Source: a virus
Taxonomy: Duplodnaviria > Heunggongvirae > Uroviricota > Caudoviricetes
Length of the DNA: 12,607 nt
IMG/VR virus record: IMGVR_UViG_2695420412_000012
Strand: one strand, 5' to 3'
This document shows, piece after piece, positions 181 to 8,109 of this stretch. A program made the translations under genes and the position numbers. Numbering within the stretch: the stretch's first letter is position 1; the number at the start of each line of letters is the position of its first letter. The notes under the pieces were generated by a model. It did not search any database and had not been told where the DNA came from. It saw only the letters and a program-made list of their open reading frames with translations.

Positions 181-276
181 AAGAAATGAAAAAAGGCCAC
201 GCAGTTGCGCAGCCTGATAAACCCTGGTTAAAATCCACACGATAACAACACAACAATATCAGTATCTCATGCTATT

Positions 277-301
277 GCCCGAACCCATTCGGGCATTTTT
301 T
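277..301 (+). terminator. Rho-independent terminator (gcccgaa-ccca-ttcgggc followed by attttttacc)
   Basis: 7-bp GC-rich stem, 4-nt loop, then a T-run on the + strand. Confidence 0.55.
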
Positions 302-307
302 ACCCAT

Positions 308-338
308 AAAAAATGCCCCTCCGGAGAGGGGCATTTTT
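308..338. terminator. Bidirectional rho-independent terminator (A-run, atgcccctc-cgga-gaggggcat, T-run)
   Basis: Perfect 9-bp stem flanked by an A-run upstream and a T-run downstream, so it can terminate either strand. It would end the leftward (minus) late/accessory transcript. Confidence 0.65.
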
Positions 339-535
339 GCATGCACATTCTTTTTCTTGCATGGTGCCGGGTGCCTCCCGGTGAATTCAGTATCAGCACC
401 TGAATCCGCGATTATCACATATACCTACTTGCTGATTGCCCCTCCGCACAGGGGGATTCACCATGCAGTAGTATTTTTAATAAACAGCAAATAAAAAAAT
501 CAAGCATTATGCAGGCTGTTTCTTTTTATCACCGG

Positions 536-1263: not shown

Positions 1264-2085
1264 CTATCTGGTCACCTTTTTCAGTTGTTGTTCTGCCCAT
1301 GCTTCTTCAATATCAAACTGCACCACCAGCGTATCGTAAAAACGTTTAACTGTTTTTTTCCATGTATCAAGAGATATGGCATCGGTTACATTACATATGG
1401 CATTAAATGCCTCCGTTGAAGGTAATCTTTCATAGCCACGACCACCACAACGCTGGCAGTCTCTGATAACAGGCATACCACGTTTTACCGACTCTTCACG
1501 ATGAATGGCAACACCGCGCCCACGACAATCTTTACAGGCGGTGGAAACCTCCCCCTTCCCTCCACACTCCGGACAGGCAACTTTTACCACCTCCCTGACT
1601 TTTTTCCATTCCTCCCAGTAAGACGGATACACGCCTTTTGTGCACTTTGCCCACACTGGCGGCTTACCATCCGGATACTGGATCTTGTTTGTAAAAACCT
1701 CGCTTTCAATAAATTTTTTTCCGTGACAACAGGGGCACTGTTTTTTGCTCGCCGCGCTACGGGCATAATCTTCAAACGCATACGAAGCCATAATACGCAT
1801 CACTGCCGGTTTTATTTCTGCCGGGAGTTTTCTTAACGCCGCCACGCGATCACACCGACTGAGTGCATATTCTGTCAGCAATTCTGTTGCCCGCTCTCTG
1901 TCATTCATACTAATGCCCATTTTCCCAAGGAACGCAGAAAACCCCATCTCAGCCCAATTCTGTGTCATGCCCTGCGCGGCCATCACATCAGTGATACTCA
2001 GCGTATCTTTCGACGTTGAGGCCGATGCATCAGTCAGGCCGAGGGATTTTGGGGAGTAGTATTTCGGTAAATCTTCCAGTTTCAT
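1264..2085 (-). CDS. Q: Late-gene antiterminator Q (lambda Q family, 273 aa, with multiple CxxC zinc-binding pairs)
   Basis: ATG at 2083-2085. N-terminus ...YSPKS...TDVMAAQGM... and C-terminus ...LPSTEAFNAI...VKRFYDTLVVQ parallel lambda Q. Cys pairs CPCCHG, CPECGG, CKDCRG, CQRCGG. Followed by the pR'-like promoter. Confidence 0.9.
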   Translation of the reverse strand: MKLEDLPKYYSPKSLGLTDASASTSKDTLSITDVMAAQGMTQNWAEMGFSAFLGKMGISMNDRERATELLTEYALSRCDRVAALRKLPAEIKPAVMRIMASYAFEDYARSAASKKQCPCCHGKKFIESEVFTNKIQYPDGKPPVWAKCTKGVYPSYWEEWKKVREVVKVACPECGGKGEVSTACKDCRGRGVAIHREESVKRGMPVIRDCQRCGGRGYERLPSTEAFNAICNVTDAISLDTWKKTVKRFYDTLVVQFDIEEAWAEQQLKKVTR

Positions 2086-2456
2086 TTTTTGACCTGCCCT
2101 TCAAGCATTATGGGGTAAATCTTCCCCCCCAGACGTCCACCAGATACTGGCTGACCACGAACGATATTGATTTCATCAAACTGCTCATCGTCCATTAACA
2201 CTCCCGCATGCGTCAGCGCATCCAGCGGTGCTTTCAGGATATTGTCCAGGTCGCGACGACGCTTATCCGGTGGCTCCACAATAATCCTGATCGCCAGCCT
2301 TCCGGACAGATTTAATTTCAGTCGCTGCTGGCGAACAATAAGCGCCACATCACGGCGATAACGCTCACCGGCTTTTGATACAAAATATGTGCTGCCACGA
2401 CGTCGCCAGTAGGTGTTCACCGTCGGCGGGTAAGGCAAAACAAACTCTATACGCAT
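2082..2456 (-). CDS. rusA: RusA Holliday-junction resolvase (124 aa)
   Basis: ATG at 2454-2456. Motif [15 protein letters not shown] ... [30 protein letters not shown] is typical of the RusA family. Its stop overlaps the Q start (ATGA). Confidence 0.9.
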   Translation of the reverse strand: MRIEFVLPYPPTVNTYWRRRGSTYFVSKAGERYRRDVALIVRQQRLKLNLSGRLAIRIIVEPPDKRRRDLDNILKAPLDALTHAGVLMDDEQFDEINIVRGQPVSGGRLGGKIYPIMLEGQVKK

Positions 2457-2468
2457 CAGTAACCCCTT

Positions 2469-3500
2469 TTACCCAAGCACGCCGGTTGCAAAGGCGTGAT
2501 CAAGAAAACGAAAAATTAAATCAACCTGAGAACCATGCTTTTCTTCGAACGCCAGCGGATCCGCATGAAGCTCGTTGTGATGCTCCCGACACAGCGGTAG
2601 CGTGAAAATATCGTGGGATTTTGTTCCCATTCCGCCCTGACCATGACCAATCAGGTGATGGGGATCGTCGGCTGGCTTACTACAACACGCACACGGCTGT
2701 GTCTTCACCCAGCGTGTGTATTTCTCGTTAACCCAGCGGCGACGTTTAGGTCGTTTCATGAAAGATTCCGGAGACTCAGGATCAACGGCAATGCTGACCA
2801 CCGTCTTTTCCTGTGGTGGGTTCTGTTGCTGGTGGGCGTGAGGCAGCGGCGCAAGATTTTTTGTGCGCTGTTTCAGTATGCTGGTGGCGGTCTGCTCTCC
2901 CGGTACGATGTCGCTTTCACGGTACATTGAGCGGATTTTTTCTGCACGCAACCCCAGCGAACGACGTAATACCGCTTCCGGTAGCGCGTCCGCCACCTGA
3001 TTGCGGACCGCCCACCAGGATAATTCAGCCAAAGATAATTCACGCTCCTGCGTACCGCTTATTGCGTGACCAGGCGGCTTACCATCCGGATACTGGATCT
3101 TGTTTGTAAAAACCTCGCTTTCAATAAATTTTTTTCCGTGACAACAGGGGCACTGTTTTTTGCTCGCCGCGCTACGGGCATAATCTTCAAACGCATACGA
3201 AGCCATAATACGCATCACTGCCGGTTTTATTTCTGCCGGGAGTTTTCTTAACGCCGCCACGCGATCACACCGACTGAGTGCATATTCTGTCAGCAATTCT
3301 GTTGCCCGCTCTCTGTCATTCATACTAATGCCCATTTTCCCAAGGAACGCAGAAAACCCCATCTCAGCCCAATTCTGTGTCATGCCCTGCGCGGCCATCA
3401 CATCAGTGATACTCAGCGTATCTTTCGACGTTGAGGCCGATGCATCAGTCAGGCCGAGGGATTTTGGGGAGTAGTATTTCGGTAAATCTTCCAGTTTCAT
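2469..3500 (-). CDS. Chimeric in-frame ORF: Q N-terminal 143 codons fused to the C-terminal ~200 codons of the YdfU-like protein
   Basis: 3072-3500 matches the 5' part of Q at 1657-2085; 2469-3071 matches the 3' part of the 349-aa gene at 6204-6806. The breakpoint is at 3071/3072 (gtgacc|aggcggcttacc). The 343-aa ORF reads through it. Confidence 0.7.
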   Translation of the reverse strand: MKLEDLPKYYSPKSLGLTDASASTSKDTLSITDVMAAQGMTQNWAEMGFSAFLGKMGISMNDRERATELLTEYALSRCDRVAALRKLPAEIKPAVMRIMASYAFEDYARSAASKKQCPCCHGKKFIESEVFTNKIQYPDGKPPGHAISGTQERELSLAELSWWAVRNQVADALPEAVLRRSLGLRAEKIRSMYRESDIVPGEQTATSILKQRTKNLAPLPHAHQQQNPPQEKTVVSIAVDPESPESFMKRPKRRRWVNEKYTRWVKTQPCACCSKPADDPHHLIGHGQGGMGTKSHDIFTLPLCREHHNELHADPLAFEEKHGSQVDLIFRFLDHAFATGVLG

Positions 3501-3871
3501 TTTTTGACCTGCCCTTCAAGCATTATGGGGTAAATCTTCCCCCCCAGACGTCCACCAGATACTGGCTGACCACGAACGATATTGATTTCATCAAACTGCT
3601 CATCGTCCATTAACACTCCCGCATGCGTCAGCGCATCCAGCGGTGCTTTCAGGATATTGTCCAGGTCGCGACGACGCTTATCCGGTGGCTCTGCAATCAC
3701 CTTTATCGCCAGCCTTCCGGACAGGATTAATTTCAGCCGCTGCTGGCGAACAATAAGCGCCACAGCCCGGCGATAACGCTTTCCCTCCTCCGAGATAAAA
3801 TATGTGCTGCCACGACGTCGCCAGTAGGTGTTCACCGTTGGCGGGTAAGGTAAAACCAAATCTATGAGCAT
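3497..3871 (-). CDS. rusA: RusA resolvase, divergent copy (124 aa, MLIDLVLPYPP...)
   Basis: ATG at 3869-3871. Same family motifs as the other two copies but with several substitutions (N-terminus, IKVIAEPP, KRYRRAVALIV). Confidence 0.9.
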   Translation of the reverse strand: MLIDLVLPYPPTVNTYWRRRGSTYFISEEGKRYRRAVALIVRQQRLKLILSGRLAIKVIAEPPDKRRRDLDNILKAPLDALTHAGVLMDDEQFDEINIVRGQPVSGGRLGGKIYPIMLEGQVKK

Positions 3872-3883
3872 CAGTCACCTCTT

Positions 3884-4933
3884 TTACCCAAGCACGCCAG
3901 TTGCAAAGGCGTGATCAAGAAAACGAAAAATTAAATCAACCTGAGAGCCATGCTTTTCTTCGAACGCCAGCGGATCCGCATGAAGCTCGTTGTGATGCTC
4001 CCGACACAGCGGTAGCGTGAAAATATCGTGAGATTTTGTCCCCATTCCGCCCTGACCATGACCAATCAGGTGATGGGGATCGTCGGCTGGCTTACCACAA
4101 CACGCACACGGCTGAGTCTTCACCCAGCGTGTGTATTTCTCGTTAACCCAGCGGCGACGTTTAGGTCGTTTCATGAAAGATTCCGGAGACTCAGGATCAA
4201 CGGCAATGCTGACCACCGTCTTTTCCTGTGGTGGGTTCTGTTGCTGGTGGGCGTGAGGCAACGGTGCAAGATTTTTTGTGCGCTGTTTCAATATGCTGGT
4301 GGCGGTCTGCTCTCCCGGTACGATGTCGCTTTCGCGGTACACCGAGCAGATTTTTTCCGCTGGTAATCCCAGCGAGCGACGTAATACCGCTTCCGGTAGC
4401 GCGTCCGCCAGCTGATTGCGGACCGCCCACCAGGATAATTCAGCCAGAGATAATTCACGCTCCTGCGTACCGCTTATTGCGTGACCGATGACGTCAATCA
4501 TCCATGCTGACAGGTTTTGATGAGCAAGTTGCTCGAGTGATTCGGATGTCTGGTCACGCAGCTGGTTGTCGCAGTGCCAGCACAACACCATTGCGCCGGT
4601 ACCATATCGGTGAATAACGGTTTCGCTGTGATGATAATCGCCGTGTGGCCACTGGCAGGATTTAATATGGCGCAACAGCCAGTCAGACAATGCACCAGCA
4701 CCACCAGCAGCACGAATTACCCGTGCGTTACTGAAAAACGGCAGCAATGTTTTGTCTTCCACCAGCGGCTGGCGAACGGCAGGAACGACCCCGGACGGCA
4801 GATTACGCATGCTTTTCGGTTCCGGCTCCACCAGTAACCGGGTATTGTGGAATACCGGCATGGATTCACGGCCCGGCTTAACGATCACCAGCCCGAGTTC
4901 CGGTACCAGAACAGGTCGAAGTAATACCCGCAC
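3884..4933 (-). CDS. YdfU-like 349-aa protein with two Cys/His clusters (DUF968-type, putative HNH-like nuclease), divergent copy
   Basis: GTG at 4931-4933 with GGAGG 4 nt upstream. Cys/His clusters CQWPHGDYHH...CWHCDN and CACC...HHLIGHGQGG...CREHHNELH. Length and position (between a small gene and rusA/Q) match Qin prophage YdfU as I recall it. Confidence 0.8.
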   Translation of the reverse strand: MRVLLRPVLVPELGLVIVKPGRESMPVFHNTRLLVEPEPKSMRNLPSGVVPAVRQPLVEDKTLLPFFSNARVIRAAGGAGALSDWLLRHIKSCQWPHGDYHHSETVIHRYGTGAMVLCWHCDNQLRDQTSESLEQLAHQNLSAWMIDVIGHAISGTQERELSLAELSWWAVRNQLADALPEAVLRRSLGLPAEKICSVYRESDIVPGEQTATSILKQRTKNLAPLPHAHQQQNPPQEKTVVSIAVDPESPESFMKRPKRRRWVNEKYTRWVKTQPCACCGKPADDPHHLIGHGQGGMGTKSHDIFTLPLCREHHNELHADPLAFEEKHGSQVDLIFRFLDHAFATGVLG

Positions 4934-4934
4934 G

Positions 4935-5213
4935 TTACCTCCAGATGCGTTGCTGGAATGTGCGGGACGGACGCGGTGGGCGTTCGGAGTAAGGAAGCCT
5001 GACGGAGATTATCCAGTGACGGTAGTCGAGGCTAAGGGCTTTTTTAACCTCGTATCCGCGCCTGCGGTAACACTGAATTATCCATTCAGCCTGCTCTTCA
5101 GTGCATGGTGGATGCTGGAACCAGTCCGATTTGAATGCATGAAAACGCCGTCCGCACCTGCTGGCAAAGACGGCAGAATCATCAGAATTGTGTAATTTGG
5201 TATCGTGCGCCAT
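4935..5213 (-). CDS. Small protein (92 aa, MAHDTKLHNSDD...) in the position of Qin rem
   Basis: ATG at 5211-5213. Its stop abuts the GTG of the 349-aa gene. Second copy at 7255-7527. The longer 129-aa track ORF is an upstream extension without support. Confidence 0.55.
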   Translation of the reverse strand: MAHDTKLHNSDDSAVFASRCGRRFHAFKSDWFQHPPCTEEQAEWIIQCYRRRGYEVKKALSLDYRHWIISVRLPYSERPPRPSRTFQQRIWR

Positions 5214-5399: not shown

Positions 5400-5570
5400 A
5401 GGTAATGACTCCAACTTATTGATAGTGTTTTATGTTCAGATAATGCCCGATGACTTTGTCATGCAGCTCCACCGATTTTGAGAACGACAGCGACTTCCGT
5501 CCCAGCCGTGCCAGGTGCTGCCTCAGATTCAGGTTATGCCGCTCAATTCGCTGCGTATATCGCTTGCTGA
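5400..5570 (-). mobile_element. insB: IS1 remnant: right terminal inverted repeat plus the 3' end of insB, 171 bp
   Basis: ggtaatgactccaacttattgatagtg... is the IS1 terminal IR. The encoded tail ...[47 protein letters not shown] is the InsB C-terminus. IS1 identity stops at 5570, where Q sequence begins. Confidence 0.9.
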
Positions 5571-5820
5571 ACGCCGCCACACGATCGCACCGACTGAGTG
5601 CATAATCTGCCAGTAATTCTGTTGCCCGCGCCCTGTCATTCATACTGATGCCCATTTTCCCCAGGAACGCAGAAAACCCCATCTCAGCCCGATTCTGTGT
5701 CATGCCCTGCGCGGCCATCACATCAGTGATACTCAGCGCATCTTTTGACGTTGAGGCCGATGCATCGGTCAGGCAAGGGGATTTTGGGGAGTAGTATTTC
5801 GGTAAATCTTCCAGTTTCAT
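5416..5820 (-). pseudogene. Truncated Q (first ~83 codons, divergent allele) fused in frame to the insB 3' end
   Basis: 134-aa ORF: [30 protein letters not shown]...SRCDRVAA then IS1-derived [14 protein letters not shown].... Junction at 5570/5571. Confidence 0.85.
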
Positions 5821-6191
5821 TTTTTGACCTGCTCTTCATGCATTATGGGGTAAATCTTCACCCCCAGACGTCCACCAGATACTGGCTGACCACGAACGAT
5901 ATTGATTTCATCAAACTGCTCATCGTCCATTAACACTCCCGCATGCGTCAGCGCATCCAGCGGTGCTTTCAGGATATTGTCCAGGTCGCGACGACGCTTA
6001 TCCGGTGGCTCCACAATAATCCTGATCGCCAGCCTTCCGGACAGATTTAATTTCAGTCGCTGCTGGCGAACAATAAGCGCCACATCACGGCGATAACGCT
6101 CACCGGCTTTTGATACAAAATATGTGCTGCCACGACGTCGCCAGTAGGTGTTCACCGTCGGCGGGTAAGGCAAAACAAACTCTATACGCAT
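5817..6191 (-). CDS. rusA: RusA resolvase (124 aa)
   Basis: Almost identical to 2082-2456 except at the 3' end ([15 protein letters not shown]), where the overlapping Q allele differs. Confidence 0.9.
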
Positions 6192-6203
6192 CAGTAACCC
6201 CTT

Positions 6204-7253
6204 TTACCCAAGCACGCCGGTTGCAAAGGCGTGATCAAGAAAACGAAAAATTAAATCAACCTGAGAACCATGCTTTTCTTCGAACGCCAGCGGATCCGCA
6301 TGAAGCTCGTTGTGATGCTCCCGACACAGCGGTAGCGTGAAAATATCGTGGGATTTTGTTCCCATTCCGCCCTGACCATGACCAATCAGGTGATGGGGAT
6401 CGTCGGCTGGCTTACTACAACACGCACACGGCTGTGTCTTCACCCAGCGTGTGTATTTCTCGTTAACCCAGCGGCGACGTTTAGGTCGTTTCATGAAAGA
6501 TTCCGGAGACTCAGGATCAACGGCAATGCTGACCACCGTCTTTTCCTGTGGTGGGTTCTGTTGCTGGTGGGCGTGAGGCAGCGGCGCAAGATTTTTTGTG
6601 CGCTGTTTCAGTATGCTGGTGGCGGTCTGCTCTCCCGGTACGATGTCGCTTTCACGGTACATTGAGCGGATTTTTTCTGCACGCAACCCCAGCGAACGAC
6701 GTAATACCGCTTCCGGTAGCGCGTCCGCCACCTGATTGCGGACCGCCCACCAGGATAATTCAGCCAAAGATAATTCACGCTCCTGCGTACCGCTTATTGC
6801 GTGACCGATGACGTCAATCATCCATGCTGACAAGTTTTGGTGAGCAAGTTGCTCAAGTGATTCTGAGGTCTGGTCACGCAACTGGTTGTCGCAGTGCCAG
6901 CACAACACCATTGCGCCGGTACCATAACGGTGAATGACGGTTTCACTGTGGTGATAATCACCGTGTGGCCACTGGCAGGATTTAATATGGCGCAACAGCC
7001 AGTCAGACAGTGCACCAGCGCCGCCAGCAGCACGAATCACACGCTCATTGCTGAAAAATGGCAGTAATGATTTATCCTCCGCCAGCGGCTGGCGAACGGC
7101 AGGGACGACTCCGGATGGCAGGCCGCACATGCTTTTCGGTTCCGGCTCCACCAGCACTCGAGGATTATGAAATATCTGTATGGATTCACGGCCCGGCTTA
7201 AGGACCACCAGCCCAAGCTCAGGCACCAGAACAGGTCTAAGTAATACCCGCAC
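6204..7253 (-). CDS. YdfU-like 349-aa Cys/His-rich protein (DUF968-type, putative HNH-like nuclease)
   Basis: Full-length copy. Its 3' 600 bp is identical to 2469-3071. Confidence 0.8.
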   Translation of the reverse strand: MRVLLRPVLVPELGLVVLKPGRESIQIFHNPRVLVEPEPKSMCGLPSGVVPAVRQPLAEDKSLLPFFSNERVIRAAGGAGALSDWLLRHIKSCQWPHGDYHHSETVIHRYGTGAMVLCWHCDNQLRDQTSESLEQLAHQNLSAWMIDVIGHAISGTQERELSLAELSWWAVRNQVADALPEAVLRRSLGLRAEKIRSMYRESDIVPGEQTATSILKQRTKNLAPLPHAHQQQNPPQEKTVVSIAVDPESPESFMKRPKRRRWVNEKYTRWVKTQPCACCSKPADDPHHLIGHGQGGMGTKSHDIFTLPLCREHHNELHADPLAFEEKHGSQVDLIFRFLDHAFATGVLG

Positions 7254-7254
7254 G

Positions 7255-7527
7255 TTACCTCCAGATCCGTTGCTGGAAAGTGCGGGACGGACGTGGTGGG
7301 CGTTCGGAATAAGGCAGCCTGACAGAGATTATCCAGTGCCGATAGTCGAGACTGAGAGCTTTCTTAACCTCGAACCCGCGCCTGCGGTAAGAATGAATCA
7401 GCCATTCGGCCTGTTCTTCAGTACATGGTGGGTGTTGGTACCAGTCGGTTTTAAATGCGTGTGAACGCCGCTCATGCCGGATGGCAAGGTCGGTATCAGA
7501 ATTGTGAAATTTGGTTTTGTGCGCCAT
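7255..7527 (-). CDS. Small protein (90 aa, MAHKTKFHNSDTD...), rem-position gene
   Basis: ATG at 7525-7527. Paralog of 4935-5213. Confidence 0.55.
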   Translation of the reverse strand: MAHKTKFHNSDTDLAIRHERRSHAFKTDWYQHPPCTEEQAEWLIHSYRRRGFEVKKALSLDYRHWIISVRLPYSERPPRPSRTFQQRIWR

Positions 7528-7694: not shown

Positions 7695-7850
7695 TTACTC
7701 CTCAGGTTCGTAAGCTGTGAAGACAGCGACCTCCGTCTGGCCGGTTCGGATTCGTACCTCGCAGAGGTCTTTCCTCGTTACCAGTGCCGTCACTATGACG
7801 GTTAAACAGATGACGATCAGGGCGATTAACATCGCCTTTTGCTGCTTCAT
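7695..7850 (-). CDS. hok: Hok-family membrane toxin (51 aa, HokD/RelF-like)
   Basis: MKQQKAMLIALIVICLTVIVTALVTRKDLCEVRIRTGQTEVAVFTAYEPEE shows the Hok signature (TM helix, TRKxLCE, EVAxFxAYE). AAGGAG lies 9 nt upstream. An in-frame upstream ATG at 7905-7907 would give a 70-codon mok-like extension. Confidence 0.9.
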   Translation of the reverse strand: MKQQKAMLIALIVICLTVIVTALVTRKDLCEVRIRTGQTEVAVFTAYEPEE

Positions 7851-8109
7851 AGCCTGCTTCTCCTTGCCTTTCGGCACGTAAGAGGCTAACCTAGATTTGC
7901 CGTTCATAGATTGAGCCTCAGATTAATGTTAAGCGTCTTGCAGGACGCGTAATGTTAACTGGGGCTTTTCTCTATCTGCCTTTTGGTGTTCATGCCTGAG
8001 ACAGATAGCCTCAAGCACCCGCAGTCATTCTACTTAACTAAGATTTCCCCGCAAACCGTTTTTGTCCGGCACAGTAAATATCCAACTAAACCAATGGCGT
8101 TCGCTGTAT

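Follow-up and report, generated by a model that had tools for sequence, protein, structure and literature searches.

The gene at positions 3884..4933 on the minus strand of the window, that is, the entire 12,607-bp contig CYFU01000082.1 of assembly GCA_001286305.1, is a YdfU-type DUF968 gene encoding a delayed-early protein of a lambdoid prophage. The last ~95 residues of its product are a predicted zinc-stabilised HNH (ββα-metal) domain, the active site of which is conserved across the family. The object itself is already known: the protein is one ordinary allele within a prophage family that is very common and has been classified computationally.

Genomic context and duplicated copies of the gene

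The window belongs to a lambdoid prophage and spans its early-right and nin region, the genes being on the minus strand. Read from right to left, it carries a cI-like and a cro-like gene, YdaT, a replication gene, DUF977, several small ORFs, and hokD with sok, to the left of which a module made up of a small ORF, DUF968, rusA and Q occurs in three partly repeated copies. ORF calling, Pfam, PHROG and RefSeq support the DUF968 gene at 3884..4933 (349 aa plus stop), and a second full YdfU-type copy at 6204..7253 on the same strand encodes a protein with 95% aa identity. Both 349-codon copies, as well as the two Cys/His clusters in each of them, read exactly as an earlier note on this DNA had described. 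The comparison of the two alleles that this note proposed revealed 332 identical residues out of 349, with 54 synonymous and 18 non-synonymous differences (dN/dS 0.088). This ratio was low throughout (0.05-0.10 within each of three protein regions), indicating that both copies are real genes under purifying selection. Furthermore, RefSeq annotates an identical 349-aa product in other E. coli genomes (WP_001265036.1).

The GTG start codon of the DUF968 gene is placed 1 base past the TAA that ends the small ORF before it, with a GGAGG stretch just 5', consistently with the coupling between both genes that had been claimed. This start is supported by the conservation of residues 1-20 among relatives with identities as low as 27% in a 28-sequence alignment. 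On the other side, rusA (3497..3871, minus strand; Pfam RusA, E 1.3e-16) begins 12 nt beyond the DUF968 stop, and the gene does lie directly before rusA in the window, as anticipated. Further rusA copies map to 2082-2456 and 5817-6191, and an intact Q antiterminator of 273 aa with DnaJ-type zinc repeats to 1264..2085 (Pfam Antiterm, E 4.7e-50), all on the minus strand. Rfam models scoring above their gathering score were those of the AgvB anti-GcvB sRNA (window 240-301, plus strand), the STnc100 sRNA downstream of Q (302-492, minus strand), and the sok antitoxin RNA over the hokD leader (7845-8020, minus strand).

The small upstream ORF spans 4935..5213 on the minus strand (92 aa from an ATG; the mechanical ORF extends to 5324), and its second copy 7255..7527 on the same strand (90 aa). 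It is a conserved ORF that belongs to PHROG 1212 and has no Pfam match, and the product of 4935..5213 is 100% identical to that of the gene RefSeq annotates upstream of DUF968. Its previous identification as rem does not hold, as a BLASTP search at E <=100 produced no alignment to K-12 Rem. In the Qin prophage of K-12 MG1655, an intact homologue, 80% identical, is found between rem and ydfU (L005, 4310-4585), unannotated in that record. The PHROG 1212 ORF is present in only 16 of 80 related loci.

Family membership and distribution

The HMM search suggested in the earlier note matched Pfam DUF968 (PF06147) over residues 160-346 (E 6.4e-77; 257.8 bits vs a cutoff of 27.8), and the full-length protein matched PHROG 96, 'HNH endonuclease' (E 9.5e-175). 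YdfU from the Qin prophage of E. coli K-12 is 87% identical across all 349 residues. The two loci have in common the domain order, the small upstream ORF and the place ahead of Q, but rusA is missing between ydfU and Q in Qin, a purely allelic difference. Of 5426 complete E. coli genomes, 4546 (84%) contain DNA at least 80% identical to the gene, at up to nine places per genome. Homologues are also carried by the viable phages SfV, SfII, mEp460, ST64B and Stx2 phages, as well as by Klebsiella, Yersinia and Vibrio phages, and the homologue in phage P1 is PdcB.

A 2017 paper that names YdfU assigned DUF968, together with DUF1364/YbcO, to the His-Me finger superfamily (group 7) and suggested a NinG-like recombination role (PMC5714182). 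The statement that the family is uncharacterised must therefore be revised: it is YdfU/DUF968, with a published His-Me finger classification (PMC5714182) and with studied relatives in P1 Ref and ΦNM1 Gp16 (PMC12817073). Our literature search found no experimental work on YdfU and no assay of any DUF968 protein. NCBIfam and PADLOC searches returned no matches, and nothing significant was retrieved by PDB sequence searches with the single protein, the family profile or the N-domain profile.

The C-terminal region is a predicted HNH domain

The C-terminal domain comprises residues 255-349 (3887..4171, minus strand) and contains a Cys/His cluster at residues 276-318, CACC(G/S)KPADDPHHLIGHGQGG...LCREHHNELH, in both copies. 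Within it, C276, C279, C310 and H313 correspond to the HNH zinc ligands, and H287, H288, D303, H314 and H318 to the active site. Conservation of these positions was scored in 120 distinct full-length family members. The zinc site was kept to a large extent (C276 in 116, C279 in 108 and C310 in 108 members), with His in 80 and Cys in 24 members at position 313, a His/Cys interchange that is the behaviour expected of a metal ligand. The catalytic set was similarly conserved, with H287 in 111, H288 in 112, D303 in 117, and both H314 and H318 in 111 of the 120 proteins. An AlphaFold2 model, built from the 28-sequence alignment (27-95% identity), reached a mean pLDDT of 84.9, and of 93-97 over residues 260-349. 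It displays the ββα-metal fold of His-Me finger nucleases, and neither copy lacks any of the catalytic residues H287/H288, D303, H314 and H318. In the predicted assignment of roles, H287/H288 supply the general base, D303 replaces the HNH Asn, and H314/H318 are the metal ligands of the helix.

Profile-profile alignments with hhalign related this HNH module to ΦNM1 Gp16 (95.4%, E 1.8e-8, 39% identity across 57 columns), to P1 Ref (78%, E 1.8e-5) and to YbcO (85%). Scores against the corresponding Pfam families fell below the cutoffs for HNHc_6 (PF16784; E 1.6e-5, 21.4-25.1 bits vs 26.6) and RecA_dep_nuc (PF16786; E 0.017, 15.7 bits vs 26.9), so that the protein is a member of neither; despite this low Pfam score, Ref is its best structural neighbour. 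The NinG/Rap family (PF05766) yielded no Pfam match at E <=10 and hhalign values of only 6.7% and 3.7%, placing the protein outside it. Profile searches, fold and hhalign thus agree with the original reading of the C-terminal cluster as an HNH nuclease motif.

The N-terminal domain holds a second, structural zinc site

Residues 1-158 (4460..4933, minus strand) make up an N-terminal domain that belongs to no Pfam family. Its Cys/His cluster, residues 93-123 (4565..4657, minus strand), includes C93, H101, C118, C121, D122 and N123, and the stretch from residue 92 to 123 reads SCQWPHGDYHH...LCWHCDN in both copies. Among the same 120 proteins, C93 and C118 were each conserved in 118, D122 in 108, position 101 was His in 94 and Cys in 22, and position 121 Cys in 71 and His in 48. 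When modelled alone, residues 1-158 reached a pLDDT of 90, and the AlphaFold2 models show a ββα arrangement near the ligands (strands 105-110 and 113-118, helix 119-125). The safe statement is that this cluster is a predicted structural zinc site formed by C93, H/C101, C118 and C/H121.

A comparison of the N- and C-domains by hhalign placed their ligands in consistent register, at a sub-threshold 15% probability (E 1.7e-3). Position 102, which would hold the catalytic His, is His in just 50 of the 120 members and hence not conserved, and searches with the N-domain retrieved no match in Pfam, PDB or BFVD, and no DNA-binding or transcription-factor fold. Given the unconserved position 102, the 15% hhalign probability and the empty BFVD search, we regard the N-domain as a possible but unproven degenerate HNH duplicate. 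Of the earlier description of this cluster as HNH- or zinc-finger-like, the conserved zinc site on a ββα arrangement stands, whereas the resemblance to HNH stays below threshold.

Both domains are connected by a helical middle region with a low-confidence basic linker (residues 159-254; 4172..4459, minus strand), to which the first half of the Pfam DUF968 model aligns and which has pLDDT values of 47-65 around residues 190-250. A NinB/Orf-like region has been proposed for Gram-positive 'DUF968' proteins (PMC4118853). For the middle region of YdfU we rejected such a likeness, as hhalign gave 0.1% to lambda NinB and 0.2% to the N-domain of Gp16.

DUF968 genes precede late-gene regulators and frequently lie near rusA

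Gene neighbourhoods were examined in 80 loci of 42-95% identity from Enterobacterales genomes, collected with a 10-sequence alignment and with the flanking ORFs called. A late-gene regulator follows DUF968 in nearly all of the 74 downstream neighbours scanned (Phage_antitermQ in 46, Antiterm in 15 and DUF1133 in 17, counts that may overlap), and RusA does so in 2. The 76 upstream neighbours scanned are varied, including ANT/Rha antirepressors (27), RusA (19) and KilA-N (12), and the start of DUF968 overlaps with the stop of the preceding gene in the majority of loci. The conserved downstream neighbour is Q, and rusA downstream of DUF968, as in the window, is the minority order. The order pdcB-lpa in phage P1, where pdcB lies directly upstream of the gene for the late promoter activator Lpa (L088, 2405-3989), mirrors the position of DUF968 before Q antiterminators of three Pfam families in lambdoid prophages.

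As revealed by tblastn, RusA is encoded within 4 kb of DUF968 in 57 of the 80 loci, upstream in 55 of those, which lends weight to the link with recombination drawn in the earlier note. The same searches detected lambda NinG, NinB, NinE and NinH in none of the 80 loci, and the Pfam list of the whole contig contains neither NinB nor NinG. With RusA frequent and the Nin genes absent, DUF968 plus RusA looks like a substitute for the lambda NinB/NinG set. The 'NinG slot' in which the gene had been placed is only a loose positional analogy, and the protein itself falls outside the NinG family; a closer match by both position and homology is the YbcO slot, directly upstream of rusA in DLP12. We also considered an HNH protein of the packaging type (of the HK97 gp74 kind) and rejected it, as the gene resides in the nin region upstream of Q, away from terminase.

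Rearrangements involving Q and DUF968

The window further contains an in-frame chimera of Q residues 1-143 and DUF968 residues 150-349 (2469..3500, minus strand; 343 aa), recognised by both Pfam Antiterm and DUF968. The 603 nt of its DUF968-derived part (2469-3071) are identical to 6204-6806. A 1415-bp unit is repeated in tandem at 1658-3072 and 3073-4487 with 96.5% identity, and the module of rusA, Q N-terminus and DUF968 C-terminus is found in triplicate (1658-4487 and 5564-6806). The Q::DUF968 junction at 3071-3073 exhibits no microhomology and one odd base, and it is missing from every one of the 5426 complete E. coli genomes. The tandem unit gives rise to this in-frame fusion, which represents the scar of a rearrangement in one genome and fits a tandem duplication. 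The chimera with the C-terminal domain is therefore present, as had been noted, but the lack of microhomology and of further occurrences in the 5426 genomes leaves its evolved recruitment into Q unsupported. De Bruijn misassembly was judged an unlikely source of the junction, for its two sides have no k-mer in common.

A second Q gene is truncated to about 81 residues, which run in frame into the final 53 residues of IS1 InsB (5416-5820, minus strand; IS1-derived part about 5416-5575, Pfam DDE_Tnp_IS1). This Q::InsB fusion records a rearrangement between two prophage modules that IS1 mediated. In database proteins, the YdfU N-domain is joined to fragments of tail tip J, tail fibre, portal and capsid (P0141, P0192, P0193, P0125, P0171), which we rejected as clues to function and read instead as deletion scars of decayed prophages; internal duplications were seen in P0001 and P0002. 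ydfU seems to be a frequent deletion or duplication endpoint in decaying prophages or their assemblies. In P0033 (607 aa, from a 4.68-Mb contig), an arrangement found in some E. coli genomes, a full YdfU is read through into a full Q with no rusA between them, the reverse of the domain order in the chimera of the window.

Discussion

Two relatives of the HNH module have been studied experimentally. ΦNM1 Gp16 binds RecA, which stimulates its nickase activity, and mutants of its zinc site are inactive (PMC12817073). P1 Ref is a RecA-dependent HNH nuclease that cuts only RecA-bound DNA and D-loops (PMC4330346, PMC3973344). The homologous modules of YdfU and Gp16 share the CxxC...H...CxxHH...H spacing and a near-identical LCREHHNE(L/Q)HA motif, and the gene for Gp16 lies in a staphylococcal phage early region that also has RusA. 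However, Gp16 has a predicted NinB-like N-domain in place of the unrelated 158-residue zinc domain and helical middle of YdfU, and within the HNHc_6 family, which includes Gp16 and the Listeria Orf-HNH proteins, the HNH core alone is homologous to YdfU (95%). Ref (PDB 3PLW), in turn, has 186 aa and a disordered basic N-terminus that YdfU lacks. YbcO (DLP12 and phage 82; DUF1364; PDB 3G27) consists of a 96-aa HNH core only, with a CCCC zinc site, devoid of the N-terminal and middle regions of YdfU. Lambda NinG/Rap is likewise a nin-region His-Me finger nuclease for recombination intermediates and is mutually exclusive with DUF968 in the 80 loci, but family-level similarity between them is undetectable (hhalign 4-7%).

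The homology of P1 PdcB to the protein is full-length (26% identity over 91% of the query; N-domain hhalign 99.9%), yet neither the HH pair nor the helix histidines H314/H318 are present in its HNH domain. Since PdcB and a few other members have kept the N-domain and lost the HNH catalytic histidines, the common function of the family may not need HNH catalysis.

As Ref and Gp16 are RecA-dependent or RecA-stimulated nickases, a RecA-dependent nickase is our best mechanistic guess. We consider it probable that YdfU is an HNH nickase with a part in the recombination or replication of the phage; if so, its dependence on RecA is a possibility, albeit one that falls short of an expectation. By analogy with Ref and Gp16, YdfU would probably nick DNA at recombination intermediates, and probably in or with RecA filaments or D-loops. 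Such nicks would feed recombination-dependent phage replication and RusA would resolve the resulting junctions, with the DUF968 and RusA pair standing in for lambda NinB and NinG in these nin regions. The N-terminal zinc domain would most likely provide DNA or partner binding, not catalysis. Both the nuclease activity and the RecA dependence are extrapolated from relatives that have only the ~60-residue HNH core in common with YdfU. Counting against a nickase are the absence of RusA from 23 of the 80 loci and from K-12 Qin, the lack in YdfU of either a Ref-type basic N-terminus or a Gp16-type NinB-like N-domain, and the case of PdcB, which lacks the catalytic histidines and is dispensable in P1 (PMC10695390).

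A different enzyme would fit part of this evidence. YdfU could be a RecA-independent, structure-specific endonuclease working like lambda Rap/NinG or YbcO, which would cut D-loops or branched DNA unaided while its N-terminal zinc domain recognises the branch. The homology to YbcO and its shared position directly upstream of rusA in DLP12 speak for this, together with the 0/80 count of NinG in DUF968-bearing nin regions and the NinG-like role already proposed (PMC5714182). The protein is nonetheless not of the NinG family by sequence, with hhalign values of 4-7% and no Pfam match, YbcO is itself uncharacterised, and the nearest characterised relatives are RecA-dependent; we hold this explanation to be somewhat unlikely, if deserving of attention. 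That the nuclease is aimed at the host, nicking its DNA to stop host replication as reported for ΦNM1 Gp16, or serves in inter-phage conflict, is suggested by the arrest of growth and nucleoid condensation upon Gp16 overexpression (PMC12817073) and by the strong Rho-dependent terminator 5' of K-12 ydfU, cited among the silencers of toxic prophage genes (PMC9160355). Such a role appears improbable for a gene that 84% of E. coli genomes keep intact, frequently as several copies and with no obvious immunity gene adjoining, that matches nothing in PADLOC, and for which our literature search found no report of toxicity.

The constant neighbourhood raises still another explanation, in which the protein would act mainly by binding DNA or by regulation, without catalysis, in connection with the late switch; the N-terminal zinc domain would be its functional core and the HNH domain an accessory. 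The late-gene regulators found almost everywhere downstream (46, 15 and 17 hits to the three Pfam families in 74 loci), the placement of pdcB just upstream of lpa in P1, the rank of C93 and C118 as the most invariant residues of the whole protein, and the PdcB-type members with an N-domain and no HNH catalytic residues would all suit it. However, the HNH catalytic residues are conserved in >92% of members, the adjacency to Q may merely reflect the end of the nin operon, and the N-domain has no detected DNA-binding or transcription-factor fold, which makes this explanation very improbable.

Returning to the HNH nickase, its domains and neighbours can be combined into a more elaborate scheme, which we put forward as speculative and, taken as a whole, unlikely. 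YdfU would be a two-module enzyme in which a catalytically dead, HNH-derived N-domain recognises a recombination or replication intermediate or a partner, for example RecA, and directs a C-terminal Ref/Gp16-like nickase. With RusA it would form a recombination module of enterobacterial temperate phages that replaces NinB/NinG, and its position before late activators would time nicking to the early-to-late switch.

No new family is added by this analysis; its by-products are an unclassified N-terminal zinc domain and the pairing of DUF968 with RusA in place of NinB/NinG. Among E. coli prophage genes, YdfU/DUF968 is one of the most frequent, and its carriers include Stx-converting, Shigella serotype-converting and Klebsiella phages. 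The Gp16 result (2026) supplies a concrete and cheap hypothesis for the K-12 'y-gene' ydfU. If the two-module scheme were true, a large class of enterobacterial temperate phages would use a YdfU and RusA recombination module, and nicking timed to the switch from early to late development would be the reason for the fixed place of the gene before late activators that are unrelated to one another (three Q families and P1 Lpa).
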